From assembly GCA_964467035.1 (NCBI GenBank), contig CAYXNX010000001.1:51373-115372 (forward strand): DNA of 64,000 bases, read 5' to 3'. A program made the position numbers and the translations under genes. The DNA is from Candidatus Woesearchaeota archaeon (GTDB lineage Archaea > Nanobdellota > Nanobdellia > Pacearchaeales > GW2011-AR1). This document shows positions 9,971 to 44,555 of this stretch, piece by piece. Numbering within the stretch: position 1 is the first letter of the stretch; every line of letters starts with the position of its first letter. A model generated the notes under the pieces. The model saw only the letters and a program-made list of their open reading frames with translations, searched no databases and was not told the DNA's origin.

Positions 9971-11431
9971 TTAACGCTCTTTTTGTTTTAGTTTATTTAA
10001 TTTATTGAATCCCTCCAATAATTCTTTTATTTCTTTCTGAGCCTCTTCAATGATGGCTTTGCTTTCTCTATAATTAACTTCTTTCTCTTTCTCTTTCCGA
10101 TATCTATTAATTGATAAATCCCATCCTTTTTCTTTTATTTCTTCAAAAGGAACAAAGAAATGTTTTTCAAATCTGTCCTCGTTGCATTCATTGAATCTTT
10201 TTTTAAATCTCTCTAAAACATCAGGAATATCATTCTTTTCTATAGGATTTCTTTTATCATCTAAACTAAATCCATCATTTTCCATTTTGTAAAACCAAAC
10301 TTTTTCTGTAGGTTCTCCTTTTGTGAAGAATAAAACTGCAGTTGAAACTCCTGCATATGGCTTAAATACTCCCGAAGGCATAGATATAACTGCATCTAAT
10401 CGACACTCTTCTAATAACAGCTTTTTAACTGACTTATGAGCATTAGAATTACCAAATAAAACGCCTTCTGGAACAATTACAGCACATCTTCCACCAATAT
10501 TCAGAGAATTATACATAAGCTGTAAAAAAAGCAACTCTGTTTTGCTTGTGCTTATTGTTAAATCATCAGATTTCTCGCTTTGATTTATAGATCCCTTAAA
10601 TGGAGGATTTGCTAAAATTAAATCATAAATTCCTTTTTCATCATATCTTTTTGATAGAGTATCTTCTCCAATTATATTTGGATTAGTAATTCCGTGCATC
10701 ATTAAATTCATAACTGCAATTCTAACCATTGTTCTATCAATATCATAACCATAAAGGGATTCTTCATCCAATATTTTCTTTTTCTGATAAGTTAAGGTGC
10801 TAATACCATTTTTTTTATTTGTTTTTAATATGTGTTCATAAGCATTGACTAAAAATCCAGCAGTTCCACAGGCAGGATCTAAAATTCTATCACCAAATTC
10901 TGGTTTTGAGAGTTCAACCATCATCTTAATTATGTGTCTTGGAGTTCTAAATTGTCCATTCTTACCAGCAGTTGTTAATTCAGACAAAAGATATTCATAA
11001 ATATCTCCTTGTGTATCTTGGTTTTGTTCTTTTATATGTAAATCGTTGATAATATTAACTGCCTCAATTAAAAGCGAAGCAGTTGGTAATGAAAATGTAG
11101 CATCTTTCATATAATTATTATAATGTGAATTATTTCCTCCAAGGGTTCTCATAAAAAGAAATACTCTATCTCGAACATGAGGCAATATTTTGTCAGCAGG
11201 GTATTCACTCCAAACAGACCACTTACAATCTTCATTTCCCTCAAAAATAGATTTGTGTTTAATTCCCTTTAATCTTGCGTTTTGCTCTTCCCAAATGTCT
11301 CTGTCTTCAAGCTTTTTCATAAAAATTAAGTAGGATATTTGCTCAATTGCCTGAAGAGGATTACTAATTCCTCCGCTCCAAAATTTATCCCATAATTTTC
11401 TTATTTTTGATTTAAGTTCTGTGTGTAACAT
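9971..11431 (-). CDS. hsdM: type I restriction-modification system methyltransferase subunit
   Basis: N6-adenine MTase motifs DPACGTAGFL and NPPF. Confidence 0.9.
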   Translation of the reverse strand: MLHTELKSKIRKLWDKFWSGGISNPLQAIEQISYLIFMKKLEDRDIWEEQNARLKGIKHKSIFEGNEDCKWSVWSEYPADKILPHVRDRVFLFMRTLGGNNSHYNNYMKDATFSLPTASLLIEAVNIINDLHIKEQNQDTQGDIYEYLLSELTTAGKNGQFRTPRHIIKMMVELSKPEFGDRILDPACGTAGFLVNAYEHILKTNKKNGISTLTYQKKKILDEESLYGYDIDRTMVRIAVMNLMMHGITNPNIIGEDTLSKRYDEKGIYDLILANPPFKGSINQSEKSDDLTISTSKTELLFLQLMYNSLNIGGRCAVIVPEGVLFGNSNAHKSVKKLLLEECRLDAVISMPSGVFKPYAGVSTAVLFFTKGEPTEKVWFYKMENDGFSLDDKRNPIEKNDIPDVLERFKKRFNECNEDRFEKHFFVPFEEIKEKGWDLSINRYRKEKEKEVNYRESKAIIEEAQKEIKELLEGFNKLNKLKQKER

Positions 11432-11433
11432 GT

Positions 11434-12591
11434 TTATTGTGTTTCCTCTTTGTTTAAATCAGAGAGTGGAACCTTAAATACCTTTATAATACTTTTACAT
11501 TCATCTATGAGTTGTTGATAATTTTTTACTTGGATATTATGTAAATATTGGTTAAAAAGTTCAATAAAATCTTGCGGTTCTTTTCCGACTATTACCAAAC
11601 CAAACTGAATTCTATTACCTTCTTTTTTAGATTCCATGTAATGTATTAATTGAGAGATTGCTCTCCCAACTTGTGCTCCTATTGCATCTCTTTTTCTTTG
11701 TTTTACAATTGTTTTTGAAGAAGGAAGTTTCAACTCTATAAATATGTCCTTTCCTCTTTGAGATTTAAAACGGGAAACCCAAAGATCAATGTACCCTTTC
11801 TTATCTTTTCCAAATTTAACTTCAACCTCTTTTTCTAAATTAAATTGGCTAATATTTTGATATTTAAAATCAATAATCCAAATATTATTTTTAAGTTCAT
11901 CTCTTAATTCATCTTCAGAAATCTTCGGATTATTAACTTTTTCTTCAAATTCTTTTAATTTTTCTTCATAATAGGGAATATTCGTATGCAATTGGTTATG
12001 ATAATAATTCATAAACCCTGTAAATATTCTTGATGCTGTTTGTGGATCATTTTGTGGCAAATTCTCCATTATATCGTCAGGAGAAATATATTTTTTATTT
12101 TCTTTTTTAGTGTGTTTTAAATCTATCCAATCATTTATTATGTCTTCTTCTTCAGATGTGAGATCCTTAACAAGAAATAATCTTATTCGTTTATATTTAT
12201 CTGAAAAAGTTTGGATAAATTTCCTAAATCTTAATATATTAACTATTAAAATTTTTTTCCCATTTGAGAGAGTTTTATATTTAAAATTCCTGCTTATAGT
12301 TCGTGATACAATTAAATAATCAATTTCTTCTGAAACTAAATCAAATAAAGGAGTATGTGGGCCAATAATACTTGGGCCTGCTTTATTGGGCGTAAAATCG
12401 CATAAGACACTTCCAAAAGTTGTTTTACTTGTCCAATAAGGCTTAACAAAAATATTTAATTCATTTGCTATCATTCTGATAGTGGATTTAAGATATTTCT
12501 CACATCTTTGTTTAATATATTTGAGTGCAGTGGTATTGGAATACATCTTTTCAAGATCTCCTTTACGTATCCTTTGAAAATAATAACCCAT
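11434..12591 (-). CDS. uncharacterised protein with C-terminal PD-(D/E)xK nuclease-like motif (Shedu/DUF4263-like?) between hsdM and hsdS
   Basis: GYIDLWVSRFKSQRGKDIFIELKLPSSK then QVGRAISQLIHYM; position typical of defence insertions. Confidence 0.3.
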   Translation of the reverse strand: MGYYFQRIRKGDLEKMYSNTTALKYIKQRCEKYLKSTIRMIANELNIFVKPYWTSKTTFGSVLCDFTPNKAGPSIIGPHTPLFDLVSEEIDYLIVSRTISRNFKYKTLSNGKKILIVNILRFRKFIQTFSDKYKRIRLFLVKDLTSEEEDIINDWIDLKHTKKENKKYISPDDIMENLPQNDPQTASRIFTGFMNYYHNQLHTNIPYYEEKLKEFEEKVNNPKISEDELRDELKNNIWIIDFKYQNISQFNLEKEVEVKFGKDKKGYIDLWVSRFKSQRGKDIFIELKLPSSKTIVKQRKRDAIGAQVGRAISQLIHYMESKKEGNRIQFGLVIVGKEPQDFIELFNQYLHNIQVKNYQQLIDECKSIIKVFKVPLSDLNKEETQ

Positions 12592-12592
12592 C

Positions 12593-13717
12593 TTACAATT
12601 CCCCCCTAAATGCTTTACTAATAAGAGAATTAAATAATTCTTCAGAATTTTGTTTAGTTTTGTTTATTTGTTCTTTCATTTTTTCAACTTGTTTAACAAT
12701 AAAGGCAAATTTTTGTTGGAGAGGAAGGGGGGCATCTATAAAATTAATTCTGTAAACATCATTCCTGTTTAAGCCAGGTATTGCCGTAGAACTATTTAGT
12801 TTTAAGTTATAAAATTTTAATAAATAATACAAATATGCAAGGTCCATTTTCTTTAAGGGTTTTACATAATAAGTTGTATCAATAGCCCAAAAATTTTCTT
12901 TAGAATAATTAACCTCTCCTATTGACCCCTTTCTTCCTATGATTATTCCAGGACCTTCAATTAAAAATTTTGAATGTTTTCCCACAATTCCGTTAGACCC
13001 ATAAACAGGATATTTTCCCCCATCTCTTTGTTTTTCAGATAAACCTTTTCCATATGTTAATTCAAATAATTCTTTTCCTGTTTTTTCTTCAAACTCCTTA
13101 TTATAAAACATTTCATAAAAAACACTTTTCAAATATTCATCAAGTAATTCCTCTGCTTTTTCGCTTTTGTTAGTTAATTCCTCTGCTTTTTCTAAAAGTT
13201 TGACAATTCTTTCTTGTTCTTGCAAGTCTGGTTTGCCGTTGGAGAAAGGAATAGGTATTTTTATTGATTCAAATCTCCCTTTAGTTATGTGTTTCATAGT
13301 TGAGCCATGACTTTCTTTTAAGAAAAGATGAATAGTTTTTTTAACAAAATAATAAAGATATTTTTTATAAATAGATTCTTTTTTTGGAACAACCTTAAAG
13401 ATATGCTGATTTAACCAACCCTCTTCTTTATCCCATAAAAACGCATCTAATGTTGCAGACCATGAAATTAACAAGTCGCCTTTCTTAACAAGATATTTTT
13501 TATCAAAAGTTTTAGTTGTATAATTTGGATTAGTGATTGATCCAGTTAAATCCTGAATTCTAATTATTAATTTTCCTTTTGATTCCCATTCAAAAGGTTT
13601 GAATGCCCTACCATTTACAAATTGAGCTACATCTTTAAGTTCCAGTTCTTTCCATTCAGTTTTATTTTTTTGTATTTGTTGTTTCATTTTCTTTTTTCTT
13701 TTTCTGTTGAAATTCAT
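12593..13717 (-). CDS. hsdS: type I restriction-modification specificity subunit
   Basis: LKDVAQFVNGRAFKP target-recognition domain opening; coiled-coil spacer; two TRD halves. Confidence 0.8.
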   Translation of the reverse strand: MNFNRKRKKKMKQQIQKNKTEWKELELKDVAQFVNGRAFKPFEWESKGKLIIRIQDLTGSITNPNYTTKTFDKKYLVKKGDLLISWSATLDAFLWDKEEGWLNQHIFKVVPKKESIYKKYLYYFVKKTIHLFLKESHGSTMKHITKGRFESIKIPIPFSNGKPDLQEQERIVKLLEKAEELTNKSEKAEELLDEYLKSVFYEMFYNKEFEEKTGKELFELTYGKGLSEKQRDGGKYPVYGSNGIVGKHSKFLIEGPGIIIGRKGSIGEVNYSKENFWAIDTTYYVKPLKKMDLAYLYYLLKFYNLKLNSSTAIPGLNRNDVYRINFIDAPLPLQQKFAFIVKQVEKMKEQINKTKQNSEELFNSLISKAFRGEL

Positions 13718-14852
13718 AATTTCTTGTAGTTATATTTTCTATTATTTTAACAAGTTCAATGATTAACCTTTTCGCTCTTTCTTTGTCTATGTCGGTTTTT
13801 ACAATACTTCTTAATGCAGGAAGTTTTTCTGCAGTTGTGTAAGTGGGCTTAGGTTTTTCTTTTCCAGTTAAATCTACCAAATAAACAGGAACAACTACTT
13901 CAGAAATTATTTTGTGCCAATTAGAATGAATATAATTATTTCTTATAAATTCTCTTAATTGGTGTAAATACTTTTTTTCCTCTCCAGAAATATATTTCTC
14001 TACACAACAATCATTAATTAAATCAGACAATTCTCCTTCATAATGATTTCTTTTTTTATAATACCATATTTCTTTTAAAAAAGATTCAATAAAAATAGAT
14101 AACATACAAACAGAGGCATTAAAATTTCCAAACCAATAATTACTTATAGTTTCATAGTATAATGATTTATTTTCTGGTTCAAGATGAATTTTAGTTTCTA
14201 ATAGAGGTAATTCTCTAATTCTCTCTAAAATTTCTTCTTTTTTATTAAGAAAAGATTTGTAAATTTCCTCAGCCTCCTCCTTTTTTAAAAAATATTCTTC
14301 ATTCTTTATTTTTCTTTTGTTGAAATGTTCAGACCTATCCATTAGTTCATTTAATTCGTTAATTGCTTCGTCTATATGTTTTATAGCATCCGAATCTTCT
14401 TCATATCCTTCCTTTAACATTTTTTCTTTTTTGTACAAAAATCTATCTCTTTGAAAAATAAGATTTGTGTATGAAACAAATTTAGAAGGGTTTTCTACTG
14501 CATCTAAATTAAAATTATTTTCTAAATCTTGGAAATACTTAGCAAATTTGTAAATATTATTATTCTCATCTTTAAACGATTGAAATAATCTTGAATTGCC
14601 TCTATGTTCCGAAAACTCCTTACGGCTAATAATTTTTTTGTCATATAAAAAATCCAATAATGTTTGAATATCGCATTCATTTTTTATTTCTCTTGCGAGA
14701 TAATGATAGAGATTACTTTTATTATTAACAAAAAGTTTATCAAAACTCCCTTTTATTTCTTTTTTTAAATCTTCAAACTCTTTTTTAAGTTTTTCAAATT
14801 GAAATGTTATTTTTTCTGGTTCTGAAAATTTATCTTTATTCTTCTTGTCCAT
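13662..14852 (-). CDS. uncharacterised 396-aa protein with HEPN-like Rx4H motif (Abi-like) between hsdS and hsdR
   Basis: C-terminal FIRNNYIHSNWH; helical Lys/Glu-rich N-terminus. Confidence 0.3.
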   Translation of the reverse strand: MDKKNKDKFSEPEKITFQFEKLKKEFEDLKKEIKGSFDKLFVNNKSNLYHYLAREIKNECDIQTLLDFLYDKKIISRKEFSEHRGNSRLFQSFKDENNNIYKFAKYFQDLENNFNLDAVENPSKFVSYTNLIFQRDRFLYKKEKMLKEGYEEDSDAIKHIDEAINELNELMDRSEHFNKRKIKNEEYFLKKEEAEEIYKSFLNKKEEILERIRELPLLETKIHLEPENKSLYYETISNYWFGNFNASVCMLSIFIESFLKEIWYYKKRNHYEGELSDLINDCCVEKYISGEEKKYLHQLREFIRNNYIHSNWHKIISEVVVPVYLVDLTGKEKPKPTYTTAEKLPALRSIVKTDIDKERAKRLIIELVKIIENITTRNYEFQQKKKKENETTNTKK

Positions 14853-14853
14853 T

Positions 14854-15081
14854 TTAATTCTCTTTTCCTAAATTCAATATTTTAAATAAAATTCCGTATA
14901 TTCCTGAAATTTCTGCTATAAAAAAACACAGGATAAGCAAAGGATGTAACCAGCCATAGCCAGAAAGGGTTGGTATACCTTCTAAAGACTCTCTCAAAAT
15001 TTGAGTAAAAGAAAATGATAGATTTATTATTAATGCTAATATGCTACTTATTAAAATTTCAATTTGCGTTTTTTGTTCCAT
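14854..15081 (-). CDS. small two-TM membrane protein
   Basis: 75 aa, two hydrophobic helices; overlaps neighbours by 1-4 nt. Confidence 0.4.
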   Translation of the reverse strand: MEQKTQIEILISSILALIINLSFSFTQILRESLEGIPTLSGYGWLHPLLILCFFIAEISGIYGILFKILNLGKEN

Positions 15082-15716
15082 TATTGTGGTCTCCCATGAA
15101 TTTTTTCTTTAACTACTTCATCAAAAAATTTATCCACTCCAAAAGTTGATATCTTTTTATTTGTAATGAATGCTTTTGTTGAATCTTTAGAAATATAATC
15201 TACTAATGATTTTCCTGTATTATGAGTACAATGCAACAAAGCAATAAAATCTTTCTTTGGAGATTTTTCAAATTCGCAGTAATAAGCCATTTCTTTATTA
15301 TTCAACTTTATCCCGTGTCTATTTCCATGACCAATTAAATATATTACCCTTGCTTTAGGATTATTAATTATTTTTTTAAGATTTGCTCTATCAGTATTAA
15401 AATATATCTTATATGCCCAATTTTTCTTCCTAAAAAATTTAACTAATTTTTTCAAATTTTGTCTATAAATTAGTAATTTTTCAGGCATGTAATCATTACA
15501 TAAGATTATTGCAATATGATTTTTATTAGAATTTAATTCAAAATTTTTATGTAAATAATACCATTGTGGTAAGATGAATATAGAAAATGCAGGAACAAAT
15601 AAATAATTAATAATAAAAGTTCCAATTTTAAGATAAAGCCATGCAATCCCCATGTAAATAAAAAAGGCTAAAACAATTAAATGCAAATTAGTCAAAATCC
15701 AAGATAGCAAACTCAT
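15081..15716 (-). CDS. membrane-anchored minimal caspase-like (clan CD, His/Cys dyad) protein
   Basis: two N-terminal TM helices; IAIILCNDY strand, IYLIGHGNRHG (His motif), ALLHCTHNTG (DxCHSG-like Cys motif). Confidence 0.3.
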   Translation of the reverse strand: MSLLSWILTNLHLIVLAFFIYMGIAWLYLKIGTFIINYLFVPAFSIFILPQWYYLHKNFELNSNKNHIAIILCNDYMPEKLLIYRQNLKKLVKFFRKKNWAYKIYFNTDRANLKKIINNPKARVIYLIGHGNRHGIKLNNKEMAYYCEFEKSPKKDFIALLHCTHNTGKSLVDYISKDSTKAFITNKKISTFGVDKFFDEVVKEKIHGRPQ

Positions 15717-15886
15717 TCTTCATCCTCCAAATCAATCTCTTTTCTTACCATTTCTCTCAGTTTCTCATTTATAGACTTCTCCTCTTTTTCACAGAGTTTT
15801 TTTAACAGAAGAAATTCACTTTTATACAATCTTGTAGAAACAATCTTCCTCTCTTCCCCGCTTAAAGGATTATCTTTTATTACCAT
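15713..15886 (-). CDS. ribbon-helix-helix (CopG/Arc-like) protein, 57 aa
   Basis: MVIKDNPLSGEERKIVSTRLYKSEFLLLKKLCEKEEKSINEKLREMVRKEIDLEDEE; ATGA overlap with caspase-like gene; not in ORF track. Confidence 0.45.
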   Translation of the reverse strand: MVIKDNPLSGEERKIVSTRLYKSEFLLLKKLCEKEEKSINEKLREMVRKEIDLEDEE

Positions 15887-15947
15887 TAAAGATGTCAGAT
15901 AATTAGAGTATTTAAATCTTTTCTAAAAACCTGTATACACCTTTTGA

Positions 15948-16304
15948 CTAGTTATATTCCAAAATTTCTTTCTTTGGCTCCTTATGTCCAAGGCTAAGAG
16001 TTAAAGGAATTGATATATTTGCTTCTTTTCCTGCTTTTTTGAAAGTAACTATCAATAACACATAAACATGGTTTGTTTTATAATTAATTGACATTTTAAT
16101 GCTTTTAATTGATTTTAAAGTGTTCTTGTCTATGCCTAAATTTTCACTTGCATCCATTATCTCAATACCACATATAAAGTTATTGCGGTTTACGTCAAGA
16201 ACAAAATCCCCAATATCTATGGATACCCTTGCCTTTTCCCCATTATTTATAAAGAATATATCATTCTCAAAATCATAATCTATTGTTTTAATCTCTCTTG
16301 CCAT
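15948..16304 (-). CDS. DUF2283-family protein (antitoxin-like partner of DUF4258)
   Basis: YDFENDIFFINNGEKARVSIDIGDFVLDVNRNNFICGIEIMDASENLG. Confidence 0.5.
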   Translation of the reverse strand: MAREIKTIDYDFENDIFFINNGEKARVSIDIGDFVLDVNRNNFICGIEIMDASENLGIDKNTLKSIKSIKMSINYKTNHVYVLLIVTFKKAGKEANISIPLTLSLGHKEPKKEILEYN

Positions 16305-16588
16305 TTTCTATCACTATTCCAAGCACTTATAACTTTTAAATCTTTTGAAACAACGATTTCAATTATCAATACTAAAGAGTATTTTCTACTCATTTTAAAC
16401 CAAAGTTTAAATCTATCTTCTGTTTTTCCTTTTTCAATCTTTTCCAATTTATTTATTTGTGATAAAAAACTTCTCACCATGCTTTCGCTTATAGGTCTTT
16501 CACCCATTTTTTTGTAAAAATGAGGGTCAAAACTTACATTGTTTTGATTAAGATTTTCAAGGAATTTTTTAACTTCTTTCATTTCCAT
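16280..16588 (-). CDS. DUF4258-family protein (toxin-like)
   Basis: FDPHFYKKMGERPISESMVRSFL resembles DUF4258 H..ER..R.I motif; overlaps DUF2283 gene. Confidence 0.45.
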   Translation of the reverse strand: MEMKEVKKFLENLNQNNVSFDPHFYKKMGERPISESMVRSFLSQINKLEKIEKGKTEDRFKLWFKMSRKYSLVLIIEIVVSKDLKVISAWNSDRKWQERLKQ

Positions 16589-19329
16589 TTTAACCCATTA
16601 CATTTTTGAACTATTTTTTCAAGCTGTTTTTTAGTGAAAGAATCCAGAGGTCTTGCATCTGCAAGAGGATGCTCAGCAAGATTTTTTAATTCAATATGCT
16701 TTGCTCTTACAAAAACTTGTTCTAATAATCTTAAAAATTTCAATTGCTGAGAATTATAATGTTCATTTTTATCCATAACAAATTTATCAAATTCCCATTT
16801 AATCATCTCTTGAGGATCTGGCAATCCCTTTATATCTAATAATTCTCTTAAAAAAGAAATAAAATCTTTAGTCTGTTGAATATTCTCAATAGTCAAAGAA
16901 GGATTTAATTCTCTAAGTTTCTTTTCTATTCGGATAATCTCTTTTGGTGTAACTCCCTCGCCATTTTTTATTTTTTGCATAAGAGGATCGCTGTTAATAA
17001 AATAACTAAAATCTTCATCTTCTTTAACCTGCATCATTTCTTTTTCAACTTTAACTACTATATCTGGAGCATCTATTTTTAACATTTTCTTTCTTTCTTT
17101 TTCATAAAAAATCATGAGAGGGGCAATATCTCTAACTAAAAAATCAACATCTTCAAAAGTAATCTCTTCCCAGAATTGTTCTTTTTGGATTCTAATCAGA
17201 TCATCTTTTTTCTGTCTTACAGCATCAAGATTCTTATCCCAAATCGCTTCTGCCCTTTCAACTACATACTCCTGAACTTTTGCTATTTTATCATTATTCT
17301 CTGTTTTGATATAATCAAACAATTTAACACATTGGGAAATAAAACTATACACTTTTGTGTTCTCAGAAGGAGAATAAATTAACAAAGGGGCTATCTCATC
17401 TTTCAATTCTTTTATATGTTCTTTTAAATCAAATTTAGATGAAATAACTTTTTTAATAATCCCTTTCTTTTCTACCACCATAGGAGATTCTATGTCTATT
17501 TTTTTAACAGTATCTTTTATTTGCTTTTCAAGTATTCTTTTCTCTTTTTCATTAAGATTTTTTTCTAGAGTATCAACTTGTTCTAAGAATATTCTTGTTT
17601 TTGCATCTAAAGTTGGGGTTTTATGATTTAAATCTTGTAATTTGTGAACAAGTATATTTGAGTAGTCTCCAAATTTAAAATCAAGAATTAAAAAATTGTC
17701 TTTTATGTGTTGACCTTCATTATTTGTCGGAAGCCATTCTTTGTTTTCACATGCTGAGAAATTTCTGGTTCCTCTACCCAACATCTGCCAAAATCGTATA
17801 GAAGACATAACAGGTTTCACGAAAACTAAATTCATTACTTCAGGAATATCCACTCCTGTATCTAAAACACCGACAGATAAAGCAATTCTTGGACTATCTC
17901 TTTTTCCAAATCTTTTAACTTCGTCCATATAGCGTGCCCTGTCTGAAGTAATTACTTTAATTTCTTTTGCTAATGTAGGATAAAGTTTCTGGAAAAGAGC
18001 TTCTATAGATTCAGCGTGTTTAATGCTCGCACAAAAGAAAATGCTTTTACAAGGTCTTTTATCATCTGATTTATAACACCTTTCCATAAACTCTCTAATT
18101 ATTAACTCATTTGTCCTTTTATCTGTAAATAATCTTTCAAATTTAGAACCTGGAGTTTGGAAGCGTTCAGGATCTTCTTCCTGGACTTTTAACTTTTGTT
18201 GCAATTCCTTACTTAATGTTTTACCCTCTATTCCTAAAGAAAGGATTTTTGTTTCAATAATCTCTGAAACATATGGTGCTAAAACGCCATCTCTCACTGC
18301 AGAAAGATAATCATACTTATATGTTGGTTTTTTATTTTCACAACCAAATAATTCATAAGTGTTCCTCGAATCTTCAAAAGAAGGCGTGGCAGTAAGACCA
18401 ATTTTTATAGCATCAAAATACTTAAAGATATCATTATTTTTATCATAATAAGATCTATGTGCTTCATCAAAGATTATTAAGTCAAATGCTCCAGGACCAA
18501 ATTTCTCATAAAATTTTCCTCTTGGTTTTTGAGGAGACATCAGTGTTTGAACTGTAGAAACATAAAATCTTGCACTATCTGAGAAACCCTCTATGTTTAA
18601 CTCACAAACTGGAGTTTCAGGAAAGAATTTTTTAAAGCCTTTTTCTTTTGCTTGATTAGATAAAGAAATTCTATCAACTACAAATAAAACTTTTTGAACA
18701 TTTTCTGTTTTTACTAAACAATCAATTAAAGCCATAGCAACCCTTGTTTTTCCTGTTCCAGTAGCCATATTAATAAGAGCCCTTTTATGGCCTTGAAAAA
18801 TATGCTCTAAAATTACCTTAACAGCTTCAACCGCCCTTTTCCTGTCAAGGATATCTGATCTAATCTTAGAATTAACAGGATTTTTTCTTTTTTTCATCAA
18901 ACTAACAATTCTATGCAAATCTTTTTGTGAAAAAGGTAATGTGATTTTTCTTCTCCTGTCTAAATCATCTACATAATACCAACTTGTTCCATTTGTGAGA
19001 AAAATAGGGATTTTTATTTTGATTTGCTTTTCAATATCATTTCTATAAGTTCTTGCTTGGATTTCTCCTTTTTCAACGCTAACAGATGTTTTTTTTGCTT
19101 CAATAATTGCCAAAGGTGTTCTATCCTCATCTAATAATAAATAATCTATAAATCTATCAATTCCTTTTTCTATCCCTAATCCAATACCAAAATATTCCTT
19201 AGTTTGAAAATTAGATTTAACAGGATTTATTTCTTCTTTTACATAATGTCCTTTAACTTTCCATCCTGCTCTTTCTAAAATAGGATCAATTAATTTTTTT
19301 CTTGTTTCTTTCTCAGATATTTTATCCAT
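16579..19329 (-). CDS. hsdR: type I restriction enzyme R subunit
   Basis: N-terminal nuclease domain, helicase motifs NMATGTGKT and DEAH, 916 aa. Confidence 0.9.
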   Translation of the reverse strand: MDKISEKETRKKLIDPILERAGWKVKGHYVKEEINPVKSNFQTKEYFGIGLGIEKGIDRFIDYLLLDEDRTPLAIIEAKKTSVSVEKGEIQARTYRNDIEKQIKIKIPIFLTNGTSWYYVDDLDRRRKITLPFSQKDLHRIVSLMKKRKNPVNSKIRSDILDRKRAVEAVKVILEHIFQGHKRALINMATGTGKTRVAMALIDCLVKTENVQKVLFVVDRISLSNQAKEKGFKKFFPETPVCELNIEGFSDSARFYVSTVQTLMSPQKPRGKFYEKFGPGAFDLIIFDEAHRSYYDKNNDIFKYFDAIKIGLTATPSFEDSRNTYELFGCENKKPTYKYDYLSAVRDGVLAPYVSEIIETKILSLGIEGKTLSKELQQKLKVQEEDPERFQTPGSKFERLFTDKRTNELIIREFMERCYKSDDKRPCKSIFFCASIKHAESIEALFQKLYPTLAKEIKVITSDRARYMDEVKRFGKRDSPRIALSVGVLDTGVDIPEVMNLVFVKPVMSSIRFWQMLGRGTRNFSACENKEWLPTNNEGQHIKDNFLILDFKFGDYSNILVHKLQDLNHKTPTLDAKTRIFLEQVDTLEKNLNEKEKRILEKQIKDTVKKIDIESPMVVEKKGIIKKVISSKFDLKEHIKELKDEIAPLLIYSPSENTKVYSFISQCVKLFDYIKTENNDKIAKVQEYVVERAEAIWDKNLDAVRQKKDDLIRIQKEQFWEEITFEDVDFLVRDIAPLMIFYEKERKKMLKIDAPDIVVKVEKEMMQVKEDEDFSYFINSDPLMQKIKNGEGVTPKEIIRIEKKLRELNPSLTIENIQQTKDFISFLRELLDIKGLPDPQEMIKWEFDKFVMDKNEHYNSQQLKFLRLLEQVFVRAKHIELKNLAEHPLADARPLDSFTKKQLEKIVQKCNGLKWK

Positions 19330-19370: not shown

Positions 19371-19736
19371 TTATTTTACCCTAAATGCAGACTCAAGAAT
19401 CATTTTCCCAGAATCAGATATAATATATAGCTTTCCTTTTTTAGATTTTGGATTCAAACACTTTTTTGTTTCAGCAGACCATTCTTTTTGTTCAATCTCT
19501 GCAACAACTCTTCTTAAATCTTCTTTTGTTGCTTTTTCAAAGGGCTTATTTAGAATTAAAGCAAAAGTTCGAATATCTAACATATATCTTCCAATTTTAG
19601 CGACGCCAATTCCTTCACTTAAAAGATAATCTCTGAATTTAATACACGATTGTTTATTCTTAGCAGAAATTTTGTTATTTGACTTAATAAGCTCAACATT
19701 TCTTTCAAGCTGTCTTTTGTAGTTATGTATATCCAT
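19371..19736 (-). pseudogene. tyrosine recombinase/integrase N-terminal (SAM-like core-binding) domain only; catalytic domain missing
   Basis: 121 aa with A-T--i--fr-yl-----s--ti--yl-d-r-F pattern; ORF stops 41 nt before hsdR start. Confidence 0.5.
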
Positions 19737-19791
19737 TACTCATTTAACGTCCCAAGGGAGTAATAAAGGACATTGATGAGCGTTATCAAAA

Positions 19792-19809
19792 TTTCAAAGC
19801 GCCCCGACC
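19792..19809. repeat. attR-like 18-bp direct repeat overlapping tRNA-Asp 3' end
   Basis: exact match to 9936..9953. Confidence 0.7.
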
Positions 19810-19871
19810 GGGAATCGAACCCGGGACTCAACCGCGACAGGGTTGTATTATAACCACTTAACTACCAGGGC
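19800..19871 (-). tRNA. tRNA-Asp (anticodon GUC)
   Basis: hand-folded cloverleaf: acceptor GCCCUGG/UCGGGGC, D stem GUUA/UAAU, anticodon stem CAACC/GGUUG, loop CUGUCGC, T arm CCGGG-UUCGAUU-CCCGG. Confidence 0.85.
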
Positions 19872-19961
19872 AACTTAAACAATTTGGGTTTATTTGTTTT
19901 TAAATCTTACTAGTCAATATAAAAATAAAAATAAAAAGAAAAAAATTTGAAGAGAAGTTAT

Positions 19962-20213
19962 TTATTTTTCTTCGTCTTCTGAATCGTCTTCTGATTCATC
20001 TTCTGAATCGTCTTCTGATTCATCTTCCGAACTGTCGTCTTCCGAATCATCTGAATTATCATCAGAGTCATCGTCTTCTTCTGAATTTTCTGATTCGTCT
20101 TCACTTACTTCGACAGCTTCACTTTCTTCTGCTTCACTTTCTGGAGTTTCATTTAAATCTGCATTTTCAGATTCTCCAGATGTTTGTTCTTGGTTTATTT
20201 GTTCGTCTTCCAT
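19962..20213 (-). CDS. highly acidic (Asp/Glu/Ser-rich) low-complexity protein
   Basis: ORF of 83 aa, DSEDES-type repeats. Confidence 0.3.
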   Translation of the reverse strand: MEDEQINQEQTSGESENADLNETPESEAEESEAVEVSEDESENSEEDDDSDDNSDDSEDDSSEDESEDDSEDESEDDSEDEEK

Positions 20214-20291
20214 GTTTGTTAAATATTTTTTTGATTTTTAAATTTATCTTAATCCTAATGAGTGACATCATTTTAGGATTTTTGGGAAGTT

Positions 20292-20299
20292 TTAAATAT
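20292..20299 (+). promoter_or_regulatory. TATA-like box upstream of tRNA-Ile
   Basis: tttaaata about 25 nt upstream of tRNA 5' end. Confidence 0.3.
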
Positions 20300-20321
20300 T
20301 GTTTATTTTTATTTAAATCAA

Positions 20322-20443
20322 GAGCCCATAGCTCAGTCAGGTTAGAGCGCTGGTCTTATATGGCTACAATTCATTAGGATTGTTGTTCTCTAAGGATGAC
20401 CTAAGAGAGCCAGAGGTCCCCGGTTCGAATCCGGGTGGGCTCA
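20322..20443 (+). tRNA. tRNA-Ile (anticodon UAU) with 47-nt intron at canonical 37/38 position (intron 20361..20407)
   Basis: exons fold as acceptor GAGCCCA/UGGGCUC, D stem GCUC/GAGC, anticodon stem CUGGU/GCCAG, loop CUUAUAA, T arm CCCGG-UUCGAAU-CCGGG; intron ends pair with the exon anticodon-loop region. Confidence 0.7.
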
Positions 20444-20583
20444 GAATTAAGGGGAACTTCGCGAATCAAAGATTCGCGGCGTGAGGTCCCCGGTTCGAAT
20501 CCGGGTGGGCTCAGAATTAAGGGGAACTTCGCGAATCAAAGATTCGCGGCGTGAGGTCCCCGGTTCGAATCCGGGTGGGCTCA
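20414..20583 (+). repeat. 3 tandem copies (period 70 nt) of tRNA-Ile 3' portion (variable loop+T arm+acceptor 3' strand) separated by identical 40-nt hairpin spacer
   Basis: aggtccccggttcgaatccgggtgggctca x3; spacer contains cgcgaatc-aaa-gattcgcg hairpin. Confidence 0.8.
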
Positions 20584-20590
20584 GAAAAAA

Positions 20591-20983
20591 ATGATAAAAT
20601 TATTCGCAATTACTTTTTTTGGAACATTCATCGTAACTAGAATTATTACAACATTATTCCATGATTTTAATTGCACTAAACTAAAAAAAGACAAATCAAA
20701 AACACTTACAGGAATTATTAGAAAAAAATCAGGCCGAGATATTCCCCATATACATTTTGGATTTTTAATTTTAATCTTAACTTTAATTATTTATTTATTA
20801 AGCAAATTTGAAATAATTTTATTTGCTATTGGCTCAAGTCTTATATTAGATCAATTAATTCCTTGGATAAGTTTAAAATTTAATTTTATTCAAAAAATAG
20901 ACTATTTTAAAATTAAAGGAATTTTGTCCACCATAATCTTGCACATTTTATTTTTTATTTTAATTTTATATTTTTCTAAATAA
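20591..20983 (+). CDS. polytopic small membrane protein
   Basis: 130 aa, 3-4 TM. Confidence 0.4.
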   Translation: MIKLFAITFFGTFIVTRIITTLFHDFNCTKLKKDKSKTLTGIIRKKSGRDIPHIHFGFLILILTLIIYLLSKFEIILFAIGSSLILDQLIPWISLKFNFIQKIDYFKIKGILSTIILHILFFILILYFSK

Positions 20984-21023
20984 CTTTCCAAACATTTAAA
21001 TAGAATGTTTATTTTATTCTTTT

Positions 21024-21293
21024 ATGCCAAAGAAAAAGGTTGCAAAAAAGAGTGTGAAGAAAAGTTCTAATAAATCTAACAAAAAAATTGCAAGTAAAAA
21101 GACAAATAAAAAAACAGCCAAATCTTTTAATAAAAAACAGACAGATTCTCAATCAATCTTAGGAGCTTTCATAGCAACTTTTTTCAGTTTAATTGGAGCA
21201 GTAATTTCTTTATTAATCTGGCACAAAAACGAATATGTTGTTTTTTACGCTAAACAATCTTTAATTTTATTTCTCATTGCCTCATTGCATTAG
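21024..21293 (+). CDS. Lys-rich N-terminus plus TM protein; apparent frameshift, reading continues in another frame to 21397
   Basis: frame shifted by 2 nt after 21290 reads ALVLSIFSGLVLWIPIIGWGIGVVLQIFVIILWVLT*. Confidence 0.35.
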   Translation: MPKKKVAKKSVKKSSNKSNKKIASKKTNKKTAKSFNKKQTDSQSILGAFIATFFSLIGAVISLLIWHKNEYVVFYAKQSLILFLIASLH

Positions 21294-21647
21294 TTTTATC
21301 AATATTTTCCGGATTAGTATTATGGATACCAATCATTGGATGGGGAATCGGCGTAGTTTTACAAATTTTTGTAATCATCCTTTGGGTTTTAACATAGATT
21401 TATTCTTTATCTGGAGAAAAAAGAAAAATTCCTTTTATTAGAGTCTTTATGAGATAATTTTTTAAAAATATTAAAGTTAAAATAGTTGTAGGATTAATCA
21501 AAAACCTGAAAAATTTAAAAAATTCTCAAACAATTAAAACTCCCAAAATTTAAAAAGATAGTTAGATTTAAAAACTATTTTGCGATTTATTTTTTAGATG
21601 CTTTGGATAATTCCTCCAGGAATTTTCTAAAAGAAATCAAAGTCTTT

Positions 21648-21720
21648 GCCCCTGTGGTGTAGCGGTCAAGCATAGAGCCCTTTCGAGGCTCTGACCCGGG
21701 TTCGAGTCCCGGCGGGGGCA
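21648..21720 (+). tRNA. tRNA-Glu (anticodon UUC)
   Basis: acceptor GCCCCUG/CGGGGGC, anticodon stem GAGCC/GGCUC loop CUUUCGA, T arm CCGGG-UUCGAGU-CCCGG. Confidence 0.85.
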
Positions 21721-22143
21721 TTTAAAGATAAGGATTGAACAAAGTGAAATCCTTCTTTCTCCGAGAACTTCTGAGAACTCTGCTTGACAATTTCAATGAA
21801 AGGGAAGTTAAATGTTAAGAAACCATAGGGGTCATACAAGTTCGAGTCCGAGCAATTTTGCGAGTGGAGGAAAACAAGGGGTGAATCAAGGCGAGCAGGG
21901 TTGCGAGAAGGCGGGGGCATTTAAAGATAAGGATTGAACAAAGTGAAATCCTTCTTTCTCCGAGAACTTCTGAGAACTCTGCTTGACAATTTCAATGAAA
22001 GGGAAGTTAAATGTTAAGAAACCATAGGGGTCATACAAGTTCGAGTCCGAGCAATTTTGCGAGTGGAGGAAAACAAGGGGTGAATCAAGGCGAGCAGGGT
22101 TGCGAGAAGGCGGGGGCATTTAAAGATAAGGATTGAACAAAGT
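21721..22143 (+). repeat. 2.1 tandem copies of a 199-bp unit immediately after tRNA-Glu; each unit ends with the tRNA 3'-terminal 10 nt ggcgggggca
   Basis: 21721..21919 and 21920..22118 identical; third partial copy to 22143; contains degenerate T-loop-like gttcgagtcc. Confidence 0.8.
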
Positions 22144-22298
22144 CTGTGCGACCAACGGACATATGTCCCTAGGCTATACACAAAAAACACACCCAAAACT
22201 TTATAAAACAACTTCTCAATTAAATTAAGTAATAAATAGAAAAAACAGATTTTATTATTAATTTGTTAGAGAAATATTAACTATTTCTCACTAAAAAA

Positions 22299-23543
22299 AT
22301 GAACAAGTTTGAACAAATACTAGGAAGAGACAATCCTATCTTAAAATCAATAAAAGATAAGGAATTTGAAATCCCTACAGAAATACAAGAAAAAACAATT
22401 CCTCCAATTTTAGAAGGAAAAGATGTTATAGCTAGTTCTGCAACTGGTTCGGGAAAAACCTTCGCCTTTTCTGTTGGACTAATTAAAAACATTGAAAAAA
22501 ACAAAGGATTGCAAGGTATTGTCCTAACTCCTACAAGAGAATTAGCAGAACAAGTTAAAAAAGAACTATCAAACTTTTCAAAAATAAAAGAATTAAGCGT
22601 TGTAGAAATCTATGGAGGAGTTTCAATAGAACCCCAAATAAAAAGACTAAAAACAGCAGAAATAGTAATTGGAACACCTGGCAGAATTTTAGACCATTTA
22701 CAAAAAAACACACTCAATCTATCAAAAATAAATACTCTTGTTTTAGATGAAGCTGACAGGATGTTAAATATGGGTTTTATAGAAGATGTGAACAAAATCA
22801 TTTCAAAAATACCTAAACAAAAACAAACCCTTTTATTCTCTGCAACACTACCTCCCAGAATAATCAACTTATCAAAAAAATATATGAAAAACCCAATAGA
22901 ACTCTCCGCCCAAACAAATGTAGACCCAAAAAAATTAGAACAGGTTTTTTACGACATATCCCCTGACTTAAAATTCTCTCTTTTAGTCCACTTATTAAAA
23001 CAAGAAAAATCAAAACTTGTAATGATTTTCTGCAATACAAGAAACAATGTAGATTTTTTAGCAAACAATCTAAAACCCTTAGGATTTAACTCTACACCCA
23101 TTCACGGAGGATTTTCCCAAGATAAAAGAACAAAAACCCTAAACAAATTCCACTCCCAAGACACAAATATTTTAATTGCAACAGATGTAGCAGCAAGAGG
23201 ATTGGATATAAAAGAAGTAACCCACATCTACAACTATGACATACCAGCTAATGCTGAAGAATACACTCACAGAATTGGCAGAACAGCTCGTGCAGGAAAA
23301 GAAGGAAAAGTTATAAACATAGTTTCAAAACGAGACTACGACAATTTTAGAAATGTTGAGCCCTTAGAATTTGGAATTAAAGAATTAAAACCCCCTTATA
23401 TTGAAAAAGTTAGTCTAAAATGGATGCCAAAAAAAGATTTTAAAAAAGGATTTTCAAGAAGAAACAACCAAAACAATTCAAAACCCCAAAGAAATAGAAA
23501 TTCTAGAAAAAAATTCCAAAAAAATACAAGACGAAAATATTAA
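22299..23543 (+). CDS. DEAD-box ATP-dependent RNA helicase
   Basis: motifs ASSATGSGKTFAF, PTRELA, DEAD, SAT, HRIGRTARAG; basic C-tail. Confidence 0.9.
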   Translation: MNKFEQILGRDNPILKSIKDKEFEIPTEIQEKTIPPILEGKDVIASSATGSGKTFAFSVGLIKNIEKNKGLQGIVLTPTRELAEQVKKELSNFSKIKELSVVEIYGGVSIEPQIKRLKTAEIVIGTPGRILDHLQKNTLNLSKINTLVLDEADRMLNMGFIEDVNKIISKIPKQKQTLLFSATLPPRIINLSKKYMKNPIELSAQTNVDPKKLEQVFYDISPDLKFSLLVHLLKQEKSKLVMIFCNTRNNVDFLANNLKPLGFNSTPIHGGFSQDKRTKTLNKFHSQDTNILIATDVAARGLDIKEVTHIYNYDIPANAEEYTHRIGRTARAGKEGKVINIVSKRDYDNFRNVEPLEFGIKELKPPYIEKVSLKWMPKKDFKKGFSRRNNQNNSKPQRNRNSRKKFQKNTRRKY

Positions 23544-30673: not shown

Positions 30674-31359
30674 CCAGAAATCACTGACCCTCTAAAATTT
30701 TGACCTAAAAGCAACTTATCTAAATTATTCAAATTGTTTCCAACAATATAAGTTTTAATTTTTTCTTCTAAAATAATTTTAGCCGCATTTTGGTCTAAAA
30801 CAAAATGCTGTCCTGGGGAAAATTTAATAGAATTTGCCATTTTAAAAAAATCTTTCCAAGAAATTTCTTTTATAAATTTCGCACTTTTATACTTTTTTGG
30901 ATTTTTATCAAACAGCCCATCAACATTTGTAACATTAATAAATTCGCTTCCAAATTTTTTTGCAATCAAAGAAGCAGTTGAATCACTTGTTTGATTTGGC
31001 TTATACCCTAATGCACCGCAAAAAACAAAATTCTGTTTTTTCAAATATTTTTTAATTTCTTTCATTTTATGTGGAATTCCTTTTTCAGGGTCTAATTTAA
31101 AAAAATAACTCATAAATCTCGCATTAGTCCTTGTAACTGAAATACCTGCAAAACTCTGCAATTTATTACTTGCTTTAATCTCCCTTAATCCTTGAATATA
31201 CATTCTCGCCACCGAACCTCCCCCGCAAACCACCACAAACTTATAATTTTTAGAATGTTGTTTCAAAATTTTTTTAAACTTTTTAAGAAAACTTAAATTA
31301 ATTTTATTATCTTTAATAATCTGACTTCCCCCCAAACTTAAAACAATCACCTTTTTCAT
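30670..31359 (-). CDS. pyrH: uridylate (UMP) kinase, amino-acid kinase fold
   Basis: MKKVIVLSLGGS..VVVCGGGSVAR; 229 aa. Confidence 0.6.
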   Translation of the reverse strand: MKKVIVLSLGGSQIIKDNKINLSFLKKFKKILKQHSKNYKFVVVCGGGSVARMYIQGLREIKASNKLQSFAGISVTRTNARFMSYFFKLDPEKGIPHKMKEIKKYLKKQNFVFCGALGYKPNQTSDSTASLIAKKFGSEFINVTNVDGLFDKNPKKYKSAKFIKEISWKDFFKMANSIKFSPGQHFVLDQNAAKIILEEKIKTYIVGNNLNNLDKLLLGQNFRGSVISG

Positions 31360-31664
31360 AAATAAAAAAAGAAATTTATATATTTAAATTTACCTAACAG
31401 TAAACAACTTATCATCATCTACATCAAATACTCCCAATCTTACCCCTGCATCAATCCACCCATGAGCATAATTCAAAGCACCAAAACAATTAACATAATC
31501 TCCTTTTTCAAAAAAATGCCTTGCATCACTTAAATAATTCCCCGCCATCTCAATAATTTCCTTCGCCTCTTCTTTTTTAACAATATTTTCCTTCACAATT
31601 TCAAAAGCCCTTTCAGTAGTTTTAAAATATTTTTCAATCTTTTCTTTTGTTATTTTGGATTTCA
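31250..31664. repeat. 415-bp direct repeat copy 1 (pyrH 5' end plus intergenic plus 91-aa gene)
   Basis: near-identical to 32629..33043. Confidence 0.85.
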
Positions 31665-32628: not shown

Positions 32629-32738
32629 TAGAATGTTGTTTCAAAATTTTTTTAAACTTTTTAAGAAAACTTAAATTAATTTTATTATCTTTAATAATCT
32701 GACTTCCCCCCAAACTTAAAACAATCACCTTTTTCATA
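32629..32738 (-). pseudogene. duplicated 5' fragment of pyrH (first ~36 codons)
   Basis: inside 415-bp repeat copy 2. Confidence 0.6.
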
Positions 32739-32767
32739 AATAAAAAAAGAAATTTATATATTTAAAT

Positions 32768-33043
32768 TTACCTAACAGTAAACAACTTATCATCATCTAC
32801 ATCAAATACTCCCAATCTTACCCCTGCATCAATCCACCCATGAGCATAATTCAAAGCACCAAAACAATTAACATAATCTCCTTTTTCAAAAAAATGCCTT
32901 GCATCACTTAAATAATTCCCCGCCATCTCAATAATTTCCTTCGCCTCTTCTTTTTTAACAATATTTTCCTTCACAATTTCAAAAGCCCTTTCAGTAGTTT
33001 TAAAATATTTTTCAATCTTTTCTTTTGTTATTTTGGATTTCAA
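32768..33043 (-). CDS. second copy of the 91-aa small protein (ATG replaced by TTG)
   Basis: identical protein; start codon position reads TTG. Confidence 0.4.
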   Translation of the reverse strand: MKSKITKEKIEKYFKTTERAFEIVKENIVKKEEAKEIIEMAGNYLSDARHFFEKGDYVNCFGALNYAHGWIDAGVRLGVFDVDDDKLFTVR

Positions 33044-33699: not shown

Positions 33700-33819
33700 A
33701 CAAAATCTCAATAATTTCCTTCGCCCCTTCTTCTTTAACAATATTTTTCTTCACAATTCTCAAGATCTTTTCAGTAAGATTATAATATTTCTCTAATTTT
33801 TTGTTATTTTATCTTTCAT
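33700..33819 (-). pseudogene. degenerate third copy of the 91-aa gene 5' end (in-frame stop after 8 codons)
   Basis: similar to 31550..31665; ATGA overlap with HEPN gene. Confidence 0.35.
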
Positions 33820-40630: not shown

Positions 40631-40676
40631 TTTCCTTTAAAGTGAATAATCATTCACAAATAATGAATGTTTATAA

Positions 40677-40849
40677 ATCTTTCCAAATCCCACGCACTCA
40701 CCCCCACCTCCCACACCAAACCCCAAATTACCAAAACCACAATTCCTAAACTCGTCCAAATTTACTATTCATTTCACCCCTCCAACCACCCACGCCCTCG
40801 CCGCTCCCAAAACAACTATTCCAATTAAAAATAAATTTTTACTTCGCAT
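40677..40849. repeat. two tandem degenerate R elements (orphan start + signal-peptide-coding fragments)
   Basis: reverse complement reads MNSKFGRV* and MRSKNLFLIGIVVLGAARAWVVGG. Confidence 0.6.
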
Positions 40850-41459: not shown

Positions 41460-41551
41460 CTAGTGACCTAAAAAGATCACTAGGGAACATTTCACTAACA
41501 AAAGAATGATCCAATTTATAAACTTTTCTATTAGTTTGGATTGTTGCACGA

Positions 41552-41806: not shown

Positions 41807-41859
41807 ACTGGTAACTATGAACAGTAATATTTAAATATTACTGTATACTAATACAGTAT

Positions 41860-43355: not shown

Positions 43356-43357
43356 AA

Positions 43358-44540: not shown

Positions 44541-44555
44541 TATGTTCCATTATTT

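Follow-up and report, generated by a model that had tools for sequence, protein, structure and literature searches.

An intron-bearing tRNA-Ile(UAU) gene and tandem copies of tRNA 3′ ends in a DPANN-like archaeal genome

The window (the whole 64-kb stretch of DNA that was analysed) includes genes for tRNA-Asp, tRNA-Ile and tRNA-Glu, a truncated integrase gene, a defence island and two perfect tandem arrays, one at tRNA-Ile and the other at tRNA-Glu (Table 1). A permissive Rfam scan of positions 19700-22300 returned the three tRNAs only, plus sub-threshold noise. The window is archaeal, encoding aIF2-gamma (500 bits), ribosomal protein S6e and OapB, and has a GC content of ~29%. These markers and the GC content, together with the origin of the closest tRNA-Ile(UAU) genes among the matches listed, which are from Woese-/Pacearchaeota and 'Nanoarchaeota' MAGs, agree with the DPANN-like lineage that a previous sequence-only reading had proposed.

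Table 1. Features of the tRNA cluster and of the adjoining defence island, with positions in the window.
Feature	Position	Strand	Details	Basis
Defence island	9971-19329	-	beside integrase remnant	Pfam
hsdM (type I R-M)	9971-11431	-		Pfam
Shedu-like nuclease	11434-12591	-		Pfam
hsdS (type I R-M)	12593-13717	-		Pfam
hsdR (type I R-M)	16579-19329	-		Pfam
Truncated tyrosine-integrase gene	19371-19736	-	121-codon ORF just downstream of tRNA-Asp	
tRNA-Asp(GUC)	19799-19871	-		ARAGORN (GTC), Rfam
tRNA-Ile(UAU) gene with intron	20322-20443	+	122 nt; mature 75 nt; CCA not encoded	Rfam, ARAGORN -i, covariation
5′ exon, tRNA positions 1-37	20322-20360	+	anticodon TAT at 20357-20359	BHB scan and cloverleaf evaluation
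47-nt BHB intron, canonical 37/38	20361-20407	+	internal hairpin ACAATTC-ATTA-GGATTGT, conserved	strict hBHBh′ and covariation
3′ exon, tRNA positions 38-73	20408-20443	+		BHB scan and cloverleaf evaluation
Perfect tandem array at tRNA-Ile	20413-20586	+	period 70, 2.5 copies	TRF (100% matches), repeat search
34-nt block of the Ile array	20413-20446, 20483-20516, 20553-20586	+	G43 to A73 plus GAA	
36-nt spacers of the Ile array	20447-20482, 20517-20552	+	identical; GC-rich hairpin	
tRNA-Glu(UUC)	21647-21721	+	1.2 kb downstream of tRNA-Ile	ARAGORN (TTC), Rfam
Perfect tandem array at tRNA-Glu	21711-22143	+	period 199, 2.2 copies	TRF, repeat search
35-nt block of the Glu array	starts at 21711, 21910, 22109	+	last 10 nt of tRNA-Glu plus 25 nt of flank	

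The Rfam tRNA model RF00005 matched positions 20322-20443 (+) over the full length with 59.8 bits (E 2e-10; gathering score 29), the single large insertion in the match being located in the anticodon loop. ARAGORN in its default mode missed this gene and called only tRNA-Asp and tRNA-Glu; in intron mode, it reported tRNA-Ile (tat) with i(40,47), a 47-nt intron after gene position 39. The gene was also searched for every strict hBHBh′ motif, defined by two 3-nt bulges with 4 bp between them and flanking helices of at least 2 bp, and splice sites were placed between the second and third bases of the bulges. In the motif at the canonical site, h is the 5-bp anticodon stem, the central helix pairs CUUA (positions 32-35) with UAAG, the bulges are UAU and AGA, and the inner helix h′ has 2 bp (GG/CC). 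The predicted cuts fall after 20360 and after 20407, and the spliced 75-nt RNA can be folded as a cloverleaf (-31.4 kcal/mol) with the anticodon loop CUUAUAA, which includes U33, the anticodon UAU at positions 34-36, A37 and A38; the discriminator is A73. This A73 and the TAGCTCAG...GGTTAGAGCGC D arm are common to other tRNA-Ile(UAU) genes, the comparison being with UAU genes alone. A TATA-like TTTAAATA is situated ~25-30 nt 5′ of the gene. The coordinates, the anticodon and the length and 37/38 position of the intron are thereby confirmed as the sequence-only reading had them, with the Rfam match, ARAGORN in intron mode and the strict motif search in agreement, and the cloverleaf and the pairing of the intron ends with the exon that it had described were likewise recovered.

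The BHB conformer of the precursor (-37.6 kcal/mol) lies ~10 kcal/mol above the unconstrained minimum-energy fold (-47.7 kcal/mol), because the intron-internal hairpin competes for the UAAG segment. An alignment of 17 pre-tRNAs, comprising the window gene and 16 relatives of similar length, was evaluated against a model that combines the cloverleaf, the BHB and the intron hairpin. In this alignment, 97.5% of the cells were paired and compensatory changes occurred in 18 of 36 pairs; none of 500 shuffles was as good, and sliding the partners by 1-3 columns reduced pairing to 25-42%. All four tRNA stems were 100% paired across the 17 genes, and covariation was found in 3 of the 4 pairs of the inner BHB helix and in 6 of the 7 pairs of the intron hairpin. 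The covariation thus supports the predicted BHB fold despite its higher energy. In view of the guides in introns of tRNA-Trp, the intron was inspected by eye for a C/D-box guide; this possibility was rejected, no RUGAUGA/CUGA pair being present.

Relatives were obtained by a scan of species-representative genomes with a pattern made up of the D arm and CTTATA, which gave at least 119 loci; invariance of the anticodon loop among these relatives is circular, the loop being fixed by the search pattern. The matches listed are mostly from DPANN MAGs (Woese-, Pace-, Micr-, Aenigmat-, Nanohal- and Undinarchaeota and 'Nanoarchaeota'), with a bacterial minority from Ignavibacteria, Streptomyces, Saccharibacteria and Peribacteria. 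Among them, >70 species genomes of DPANN have tRNA-Ile(UAU), in most cases with the intron positioned as in the window gene. Where the 3′ end could be delimited, an insertion follows CTTATA in at least 61 genes, and only ~10 of the matches listed are intronless with a gene length of 75 nt. The intron-bearing genes listed span 86-149 nt (mode 119-122 nt), with a few at 218-313 nt, and 43 of 61 among the matches listed have a strict BHB exactly at 37/38. Several of the relatives listed have homologous introns of 46-48 nt. Synteny extends to the neighbouring gene, tRNA-Glu adjoining tRNA-Ile(UAU) also in six of the related loci (L003, L006, L010, L011, L012 and L122).

A different placement of the intron would give another anticodon, and the gene could alternatively be a pseudogene. 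ARAGORN in intron mode indeed shifts the intron by 1-3 nt in relatives L005, L006 and L056, which it calls Ser-tga or Ala-tgc, and further chance BHB-like motifs are present in the window gene. However, a 75-nt cloverleaf results from the 37/38 motif only, tRNA arms being destroyed with the other BHB candidates, and for the window gene ARAGORN in intron mode and the BHB rule both give tat. All stems are intact and covarying, and the D arm and A73 resemble those of other tRNA-Ile(UAU) genes. An identity other than Ile(UAU) is considered extremely improbable. The segment is best explained, with high probability, as a functional gene for an AUA-decoding isoleucine tRNA, an assignment that is separate from the origin of the arrays considered below.

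Codon usage points to the need for such a tRNA. In 33 ORFs of the window, AUA makes up 28.5% of the Ile codons, and its frequency is 22 per 1000 codons, that of AUG being 14.6 per 1000. As AUA is used more than AUG, an efficient AUA decoder is needed. ARAGORN found no CAU tRNA within the 64-kb window, and profile searches found no TiaS-like domain in the ORFs scanned. The absence of tiaS from the genome, which the sequence-only reading had predicted, is a reasonable expectation. Similarly, no match to a tRNA-splicing-endonuclease family was obtained in the ORFs scanned with Pfam or NCBIfam, which are a part of the ORFs of the window. The gene would be transcribed as a 122-nt precursor, in which, as supported by the sequence and the covariation, CUUA of the anticodon loop pairs with UAAG at the 3′ end of the intron to form the strict BHB. 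By the known pathway, the archaeal splicing endonuclease would cut both 3-nt bulges and a ligase would join the exons. The expected product is a 75-nt tRNA with the loop CUUAUAA, to which CCA, not being encoded, would then be added and which would read AUA; by comparison with other systems, U34 is presumably modified, limiting misreading of AUG. By analogy, tRNA-Ile(UAU) would be a putative replacement here for the route via tRNA-Ile2(CAU) and TiaS (agmatidine).

The sequence-only reading did not remark that the last 31 nt of the tRNA-Ile gene open a perfect tandem array. These 31 nt are the first 31 nt of the 34-nt block that is repeated there. The spacer between the blocks is much more GC-rich than the genome and includes a hairpin, CGCGAATC-AAA-GATTCGCG, with -12.1 kcal/mol (z -2.7). 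The array at tRNA-Glu has two spacers of 164 nt, identical to each other, with a degenerate T-loop-like AAGTTCGAGTCCGAGC. Apart from these two, the 64 kb contain no perfect array of long period. A structured RNA in the 199-nt Glu unit was rejected, the unit being no more structured than shuffles (z -0.4). Reading the extra 3′ pieces as a split or permuted tRNA was rejected as well, there being no 5′ half or complementary leader and the copies starting at position 43 rather than 38. The ORF at 20591-20983 has no record in the assembly index. Metagenome loci retrieved on the basis of the helicase are at most 63% identical, and no strain-level variants of the arrays were found among them.

The arrays could be an assembly artefact or have a wrong copy number, the genome carrying a single tRNA 3′ end. 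All of the data are short-read metagenome assemblies, the copies are 100% identical, the partial terminal copies are suspiciously alike in length (34 and 35 nt), and Logan contigs break at both arrays, which leaves the copy number unconfirmed by them. Two Logan unitigs (SRR11308339) match the window with 100% identity; one ends at 20442 and the other starts at 22114, each exactly on a block 30-mer, and a block with two different left or right neighbours forces a k=31 graph to break at these points. Thus, the blocks have two contexts in the reads and the duplication is real in the data. Moreover, the 174-nt Ile array fits in one read pair, and analogous copies, some with one mismatch and with other spacers, are present in at least six other assemblies produced by different assemblers. 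An artefact is considered very unlikely.

Copies of tRNA ends in related loci were surveyed in the window and 200 fetched loci, in which ARAGORN in intron mode identified 206 tRNAs; the last and first 20 nt of each were searched for with at most one mismatch. Copies of the 3′ end were found downstream of 8 tRNAs and upstream of none, and copies of the 5′ end upstream of 6 tRNAs and downstream of none. Short outward-facing copies thus accompany about 13-14 of the 206 tRNAs, and inward-facing copies none. Decay of a tandem gene pair, which predicts inward-facing fragments, was rejected on this ground (0 of 14 face inward). The distance from the gene is at most 221 nt for each of the 16 copies. 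No partial copies occur between ~250 nt and 5 kb, though more than half of the 206 tRNAs have at least 3 kb of flank, and the single match at 5.6 kb corresponds to another complete tRNA-Gly gene.

Like copies occur in independent genomes (L031, L056, L106, L083, L160 and L033, the last a CPR bacterium). In four independent events at tRNA-Ile(UAU) of Woese-/Pacearchaeota (the window, L031, L056 and L106), the block starts at A42 or G43, and the spacers are mutually unrelated and unlike the native flanks. In four other events, the block starts in the T loop, and several 5′ copies end in the D loop. The tRNA-Met of the Saccharibacteria contig L033 is accompanied by three blocks with two different hairpin spacers. 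In relatives, 27-104 nt separate the blocks; overall, the spacers are of 27-164 nt and the blocks of 20-56 nt. Some spacers (in the window, L033, L056 and L160) share a 'GAAC plus GC hairpin' look, noted post hoc. The copies are not simple tandem duplications, since the flank that follows the last block is unlike the spacer.

Loci L061, L067 and L106 have identical tRNA-Ile exons. Of these, L067 carries no copy of any kind and L106 carries one of the 3′ end. Locus L061 differs from its sister L067 by a single clean insertion of 72 nt, which separates the gene from its conserved upstream flank and comprises a 5′ copy (22 nt) and a spacer (50 nt). Hence, the copies are sporadic lineage-specific insertions with a long target duplication and not conserved functional elements.

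The copies at tRNA-Ile and tRNA-Glu may be scars of site-specific integration that were amplified by unequal exchange, an origin to which we give about an even chance. A tyrosine integrase targeting tRNA genes would duplicate an identity block at the attachment site in the tRNA end; almost no DNA of the element would be left between the copies, and the unit would then be amplified by unequal exchange between the blocks. Integration scars are favoured because identity blocks at attachment sites would have the strict orientation and the site-specific boundaries that are observed. The repeats are outward direct repeats on the same strand with a site-specific inner boundary (A42/G43), as in duplication of an att site, but only 36 or 164 nt lie between them and no integrase-bearing element. 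Both arrays lack an integrase remnant, the only one being that beside tRNA-Asp. A free or integrated element with the same block (attP) was not found in the viral contigs, metagenomes, phages and plasmids searched: exact-match scans of viral_contigs with the 29-nt spacer core and with the 31-nt block gave no match, nor did one of metagenome_contigs with the 29-nt block, and blastn found neither the 199-nt Glu unit in phages nor a 140-nt piece from the Ile array in plasmids. Several further features do not fit integration scars. All known integrative elements are far larger than the enclosed DNA, the absence of copies at ~250 nt-5 kb is unexpected if large elements decayed gradually, the two Ile spacers are identical, and the 5′ copies that end in the D loop are not at a classical integrase sublocation.

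The ORF of the integrase remnant gave no match in the Pfam, PHROGs, NCBIfam or PDB profile searches, and its identification as an integrase is due to its homologs only. These are 58-64% identical, and three of them (P0002, P0003 and P0005) score above the Pfam gathering threshold of Phage_int_SAM_1. Alignment with the homologs indicated that the remnant comprises the N-terminal SAM-like domain only and loses the frame after about residue 95; one homolog runs on into the start of the catalytic domain. A distal tRNA-Asp fragment that would bound the adjacent defence island was not found within the window. The presence of the integrase remnant and defence genes at tRNA-Asp suggests that the tRNA cluster is an integration hot spot.

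Local errors of replication or repair at highly transcribed, structure-forming tRNA genes could produce such copies without an integrase, for instance by slippage, by fork stalling with template switching or by fill-in of a staggered break joined with filler DNA. This origin would account for the confinement of the copies to 221 nt, with none at intermediate distances, and for the perfection of the arrays, as expected of recent duplications; the failure of the searches to find a donor element agrees with it, and the outward-only orientation is also expected from selection for one intact gene once a duplication has crossed a gene end. However, the layout is block-spacer-block-different flank and not the block-flank-block-flank of a simple tandem duplication. 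The spacers are unrelated to the native flanks, that of the window being far GC-richer than the genome, and the inner boundary at A42/G43 is common to the four independent tRNA-Ile events. Errors of this type are a possible but doubtful source of the copies.

With its 34-nt repeat and 36-nt spacer, the array at tRNA-Ile is similar in geometry to a CRISPR unit, and the units could be CRISPR-like products of Cas1-type ectopic integration or, alternatively, functional RNAs or decoy attachment sites under selection. The two different spacers between the three blocks at tRNA-Met of L033, the repeated events at the same tRNA (the window, L033, L056 and L160) and the frequency of GC hairpins in the spacers point in the same direction. 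Yet there is no ruler, given the ranges of 27-164 nt for the spacers and 20-56 nt for the blocks, and the two spacers of the window are identical within each array. No cas domain above threshold was detected in the scanned ORFs of the window and no CRISPR array in the window. The copies are not conserved among the sisters L061, L067 and L106 despite identical tRNAs, and the 199-nt unit is unstructured and has no Rfam match. Both CRISPR-like integration and a selected function are most unlikely.

A further, unlikely explanation is that the units, each consisting of a 20-56-nt copy of a tRNA end and a 27-164-nt, often hairpin-bearing spacer, are products of a distinct, undescribed micro-insertion process at both ends of tRNA genes in lineages with ultrasmall genomes (DPANN, CPR) and not decayed large elements. 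Such a process may involve att-flanked mini-elements of sub-100-bp size mobilised in trans, or a repair pathway that leaves long target duplications, and either could act repeatedly at the same tRNA.

An intron-bearing tRNA-Ile(UAU) is an already described type that is common in DPANN archaea, and its duplicated tail is less ordinary. The window gene adds one more case of AUA decoding in DPANN by an intron-bearing UAU tRNA as opposed to the agmatidine route. It is also of value for annotation, as ARAGORN misses the gene by default and, when introns are allowed, gives some relatives a wrong Ser or Ala label. The tRNA-end copies mark the tRNA cluster as a recombination hot spot beside a defence island, and they can give false partial tRNA calls and break assemblies. 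Their uniformly tiny spacers across DPANN and CPR genomes are poorly explained by the usual model of decayed islands.

Partial tRNA genes that flank integrated elements (att duplications) are known from islands of Thermococcaceae, tycheposons and CIME-like remnants, the last of which lack an integrase. The copies in the window resemble these cases in being same-strand direct repeats of a tRNA end that point outward from the intact gene, in the presence of more than two att copies in tandem, and in having integrase fragments and defence cargo nearby. Known att cases enclose 9-23 kb or more, whereas 36 or 164 nt are enclosed here and 27-104 nt in relatives, with no intermediates. The formation of partial tRNA genes as by-products of integration is established (Thermococcaceae islands, PMC9897764; tycheposon preprint, 10.1101/2020.12.28.424599).

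The tRNA-Ile(UAU) gene can be compared with those of the three ARMAN lineages, all of which have tRNA-Ile(UAU) and lack tRNA-Ile(CAU) and TiaS (Fujishima et al. 2011; PMC3239211). The UAU anticodon, the DPANN host and the putative decoding of AUA in place of tRNA-Ile2(CAU) and TiaS are points of likeness with ARMAN-2, -4 and -5 (PMC3239211). The ARMAN-2 gene has an intron at 37/38 with a strict hBHBh′ motif, and the ARMAN-2 endonuclease cleaves the tRNA-Ile(UAU) precursor in vitro (PMC3239211). That intron is of 25 nt, compared to 47 nt here, and the present host is Woese-/Pacearchaeota-like, not of the Micr-/Parvarchaeota. In ARMAN, the absence of TiaS and the cleavage by the endonuclease have been shown, whereas both are predictions here. 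Taken together, the report of Fujishima et al. 2011 (PMC3239211) and the genome scan indicate that DPANN archaea as a rule have a UAU tRNA in place of the agmatidine route.

Nanoarchaeum equitans and Korarchaeum cryptofilum have been treated as the only archaeal cases of UAU among 167-217 complete genomes (PMC6000648, PMC8450103). The description of tRNA-Ile(UAU) by the sequence-only reading as exceptional and reported for Nanoarchaeum and Korarchaeum matches these surveys, but its occurrence in ARMAN (PMC3239211) and at the loci found here, at least 119 and mostly in DPANN, renders a restriction to these two genera out of date. The scan thus corrects the textbook impression that archaeal tRNA-Ile(UAU) exists in two species only. 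As in N. equitans and K. cryptofilum, a genomically encoded UAU would make tRNA-Ile2(CAU) unnecessary, and the Korarchaeum tRNA-Ile(UAU) gene is also intron-bearing; the window gene differs in belonging to a much larger set, which consists of MAGs only.

Eukaryotic tRNA-Ile(UAU) contains an intron, and in yeast pseudouridylation of U34 and U36 is intron-dependent. The splicing motif of the window gene differs from the eukaryotic case in being an archaeal BHB. The combination of UAU with a near-obligatory 37/38 intron (61 genes with and ~10 without among the matches listed) is the point of likeness; this near-universal association parallels the eukaryotic situation and suggests, as a testable idea, that modification of the anticodon may be linked to the intron.

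Two perfect tandem arrays in the window have their 5′ start inside a tRNA gene, one in tRNA-Ile(UAU) and the other in tRNA-Glu(UUC). The repeat unit of the tRNA-Ile array consists of a 34-nt block copied from the tRNA end (G43 to A73 plus GAA) and a 36-nt spacer, which includes a GC-rich hairpin and is identical between its copies. The last block is separated by 5 nt from the start of ORF 20591. In the tRNA-Glu array, the 164-nt spacer contains a degenerate T-loop-like sequence, AAGTTCGAGTCCGAGC, that is possibly an older scar. The 199-nt unit showed no significant structure, and a search of the phage collection with this unit gave no match.

Features of the tRNA region and further repeats, with positions in the window
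Feature	Position	Strand	Description
Type I R-M and Shedu-like defence island	9971-19329	-	hsdM, hsdS, hsdR and nuclease
Truncated tyrosine-integrase gene	19371-19736	-	SAM-like N-terminal domain only; directly downstream of tRNA-Asp
83-codon ORF	19962-20213	-	Nearly all Asp, Glu, Ser; between tRNA-Asp and tRNA-Ile
tRNA-Ile array, perfect	20413-20586		Period 70 nt, 2.5 copies; starts within 3′ exon
tRNA-Glu array, perfect	21711-22143		Period 199 nt, 2.2 copies; starts in final 10 nt of tRNA-Glu
Exact 393-nt duplication	31251-31643 and 32629-33021		1378 nt apart
Third copy of 393-nt duplication	33705-33801		81%
C-rich 48-68-nt repeats	39496-45848		At least 6 copies, e.g. CCCACGCCAAACCCCCAATTACCAAA; at MNT/HEPN-like gene ends
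IS5-family transposase gene	41860-42732	+	NCBIfam, 197 bits
Array, 44-nt period	45691-45844		
Exact 300-nt duplication	57373-57672 and 59547-59846		Shared by two adjacent ORFs of very large size, 705 and 1133 aa

On the tRNA-Asp(GUC) side, where the integrase remnant is located, a distal tRNA-Asp fragment was sought within the window and none was found. The gene for the Shedu-like PD-(D/E)XK nuclease of the defence island sits between hsdM and hsdS, and the island further includes several small ORFs that could be assigned to no family. The Asp/Glu/Ser ORF is built of 12/24-nt tandem repeats and is also present among the gene calls on the read-derived Logan contig.

Repeats are found elsewhere in the window as well. 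The 393-nt duplication is set among paralogous nucleotidyltransferase/HEPN-type small genes (31.6-45.6 kb), and the repeats at 39496-45848 may encode a common Gly/Trp-rich peptide on the minus strand. Segments sharing 82-93% identity also link the 705- and 1133-aa ORFs (57.4-63.0 kb), which look like paralogous surface-protein-like genes.

The window tRNA-Ile(UAU) gene was missed entirely by ARAGORN in default mode. In intron mode, the program misplaced the intron by 1-3 nt in some relatives (L005, L006, L056 and others), giving the labels Ala-tgc or Ser-tga. Annotations of DPANN MAGs probably contain errors that arise from such misses and mislabels. Unusually long introns of 238, 237 and 143 nt, all at 37/38 with a strict BHB, were found in the tRNA-Ile(UAU) genes of three fetched loci, L062, L095 and L118 (genes of 313, 312 and 218 nt, respectively).

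Locus L033 belongs to a Saccharibacteria (CPR) contig (CAYXGU010000014.1; locus positions 1258-1334 and 4307-4382 (-)), and this bacterium encodes both a tRNA-Ile(UAU) and an Ile2-like CAU tRNA. Downstream of the CAU tRNA, its T-loop-to-CCA block occurs two more times, set apart by two hairpin spacers that differ from each other. The UAU tRNA has copies on both sides, one of its 5′ end (34 nt) upstream and one of its 3′ end (20 nt) downstream. A loose likeness, 'TAAG/GAAC(C) then GC hairpin', was noted post hoc between the window spacers (20447-20482) and those of L033 and two further loci, L056 and L160. The spacers are otherwise unrelated, and the likeness spans an archaeon and a CPR bacterium.
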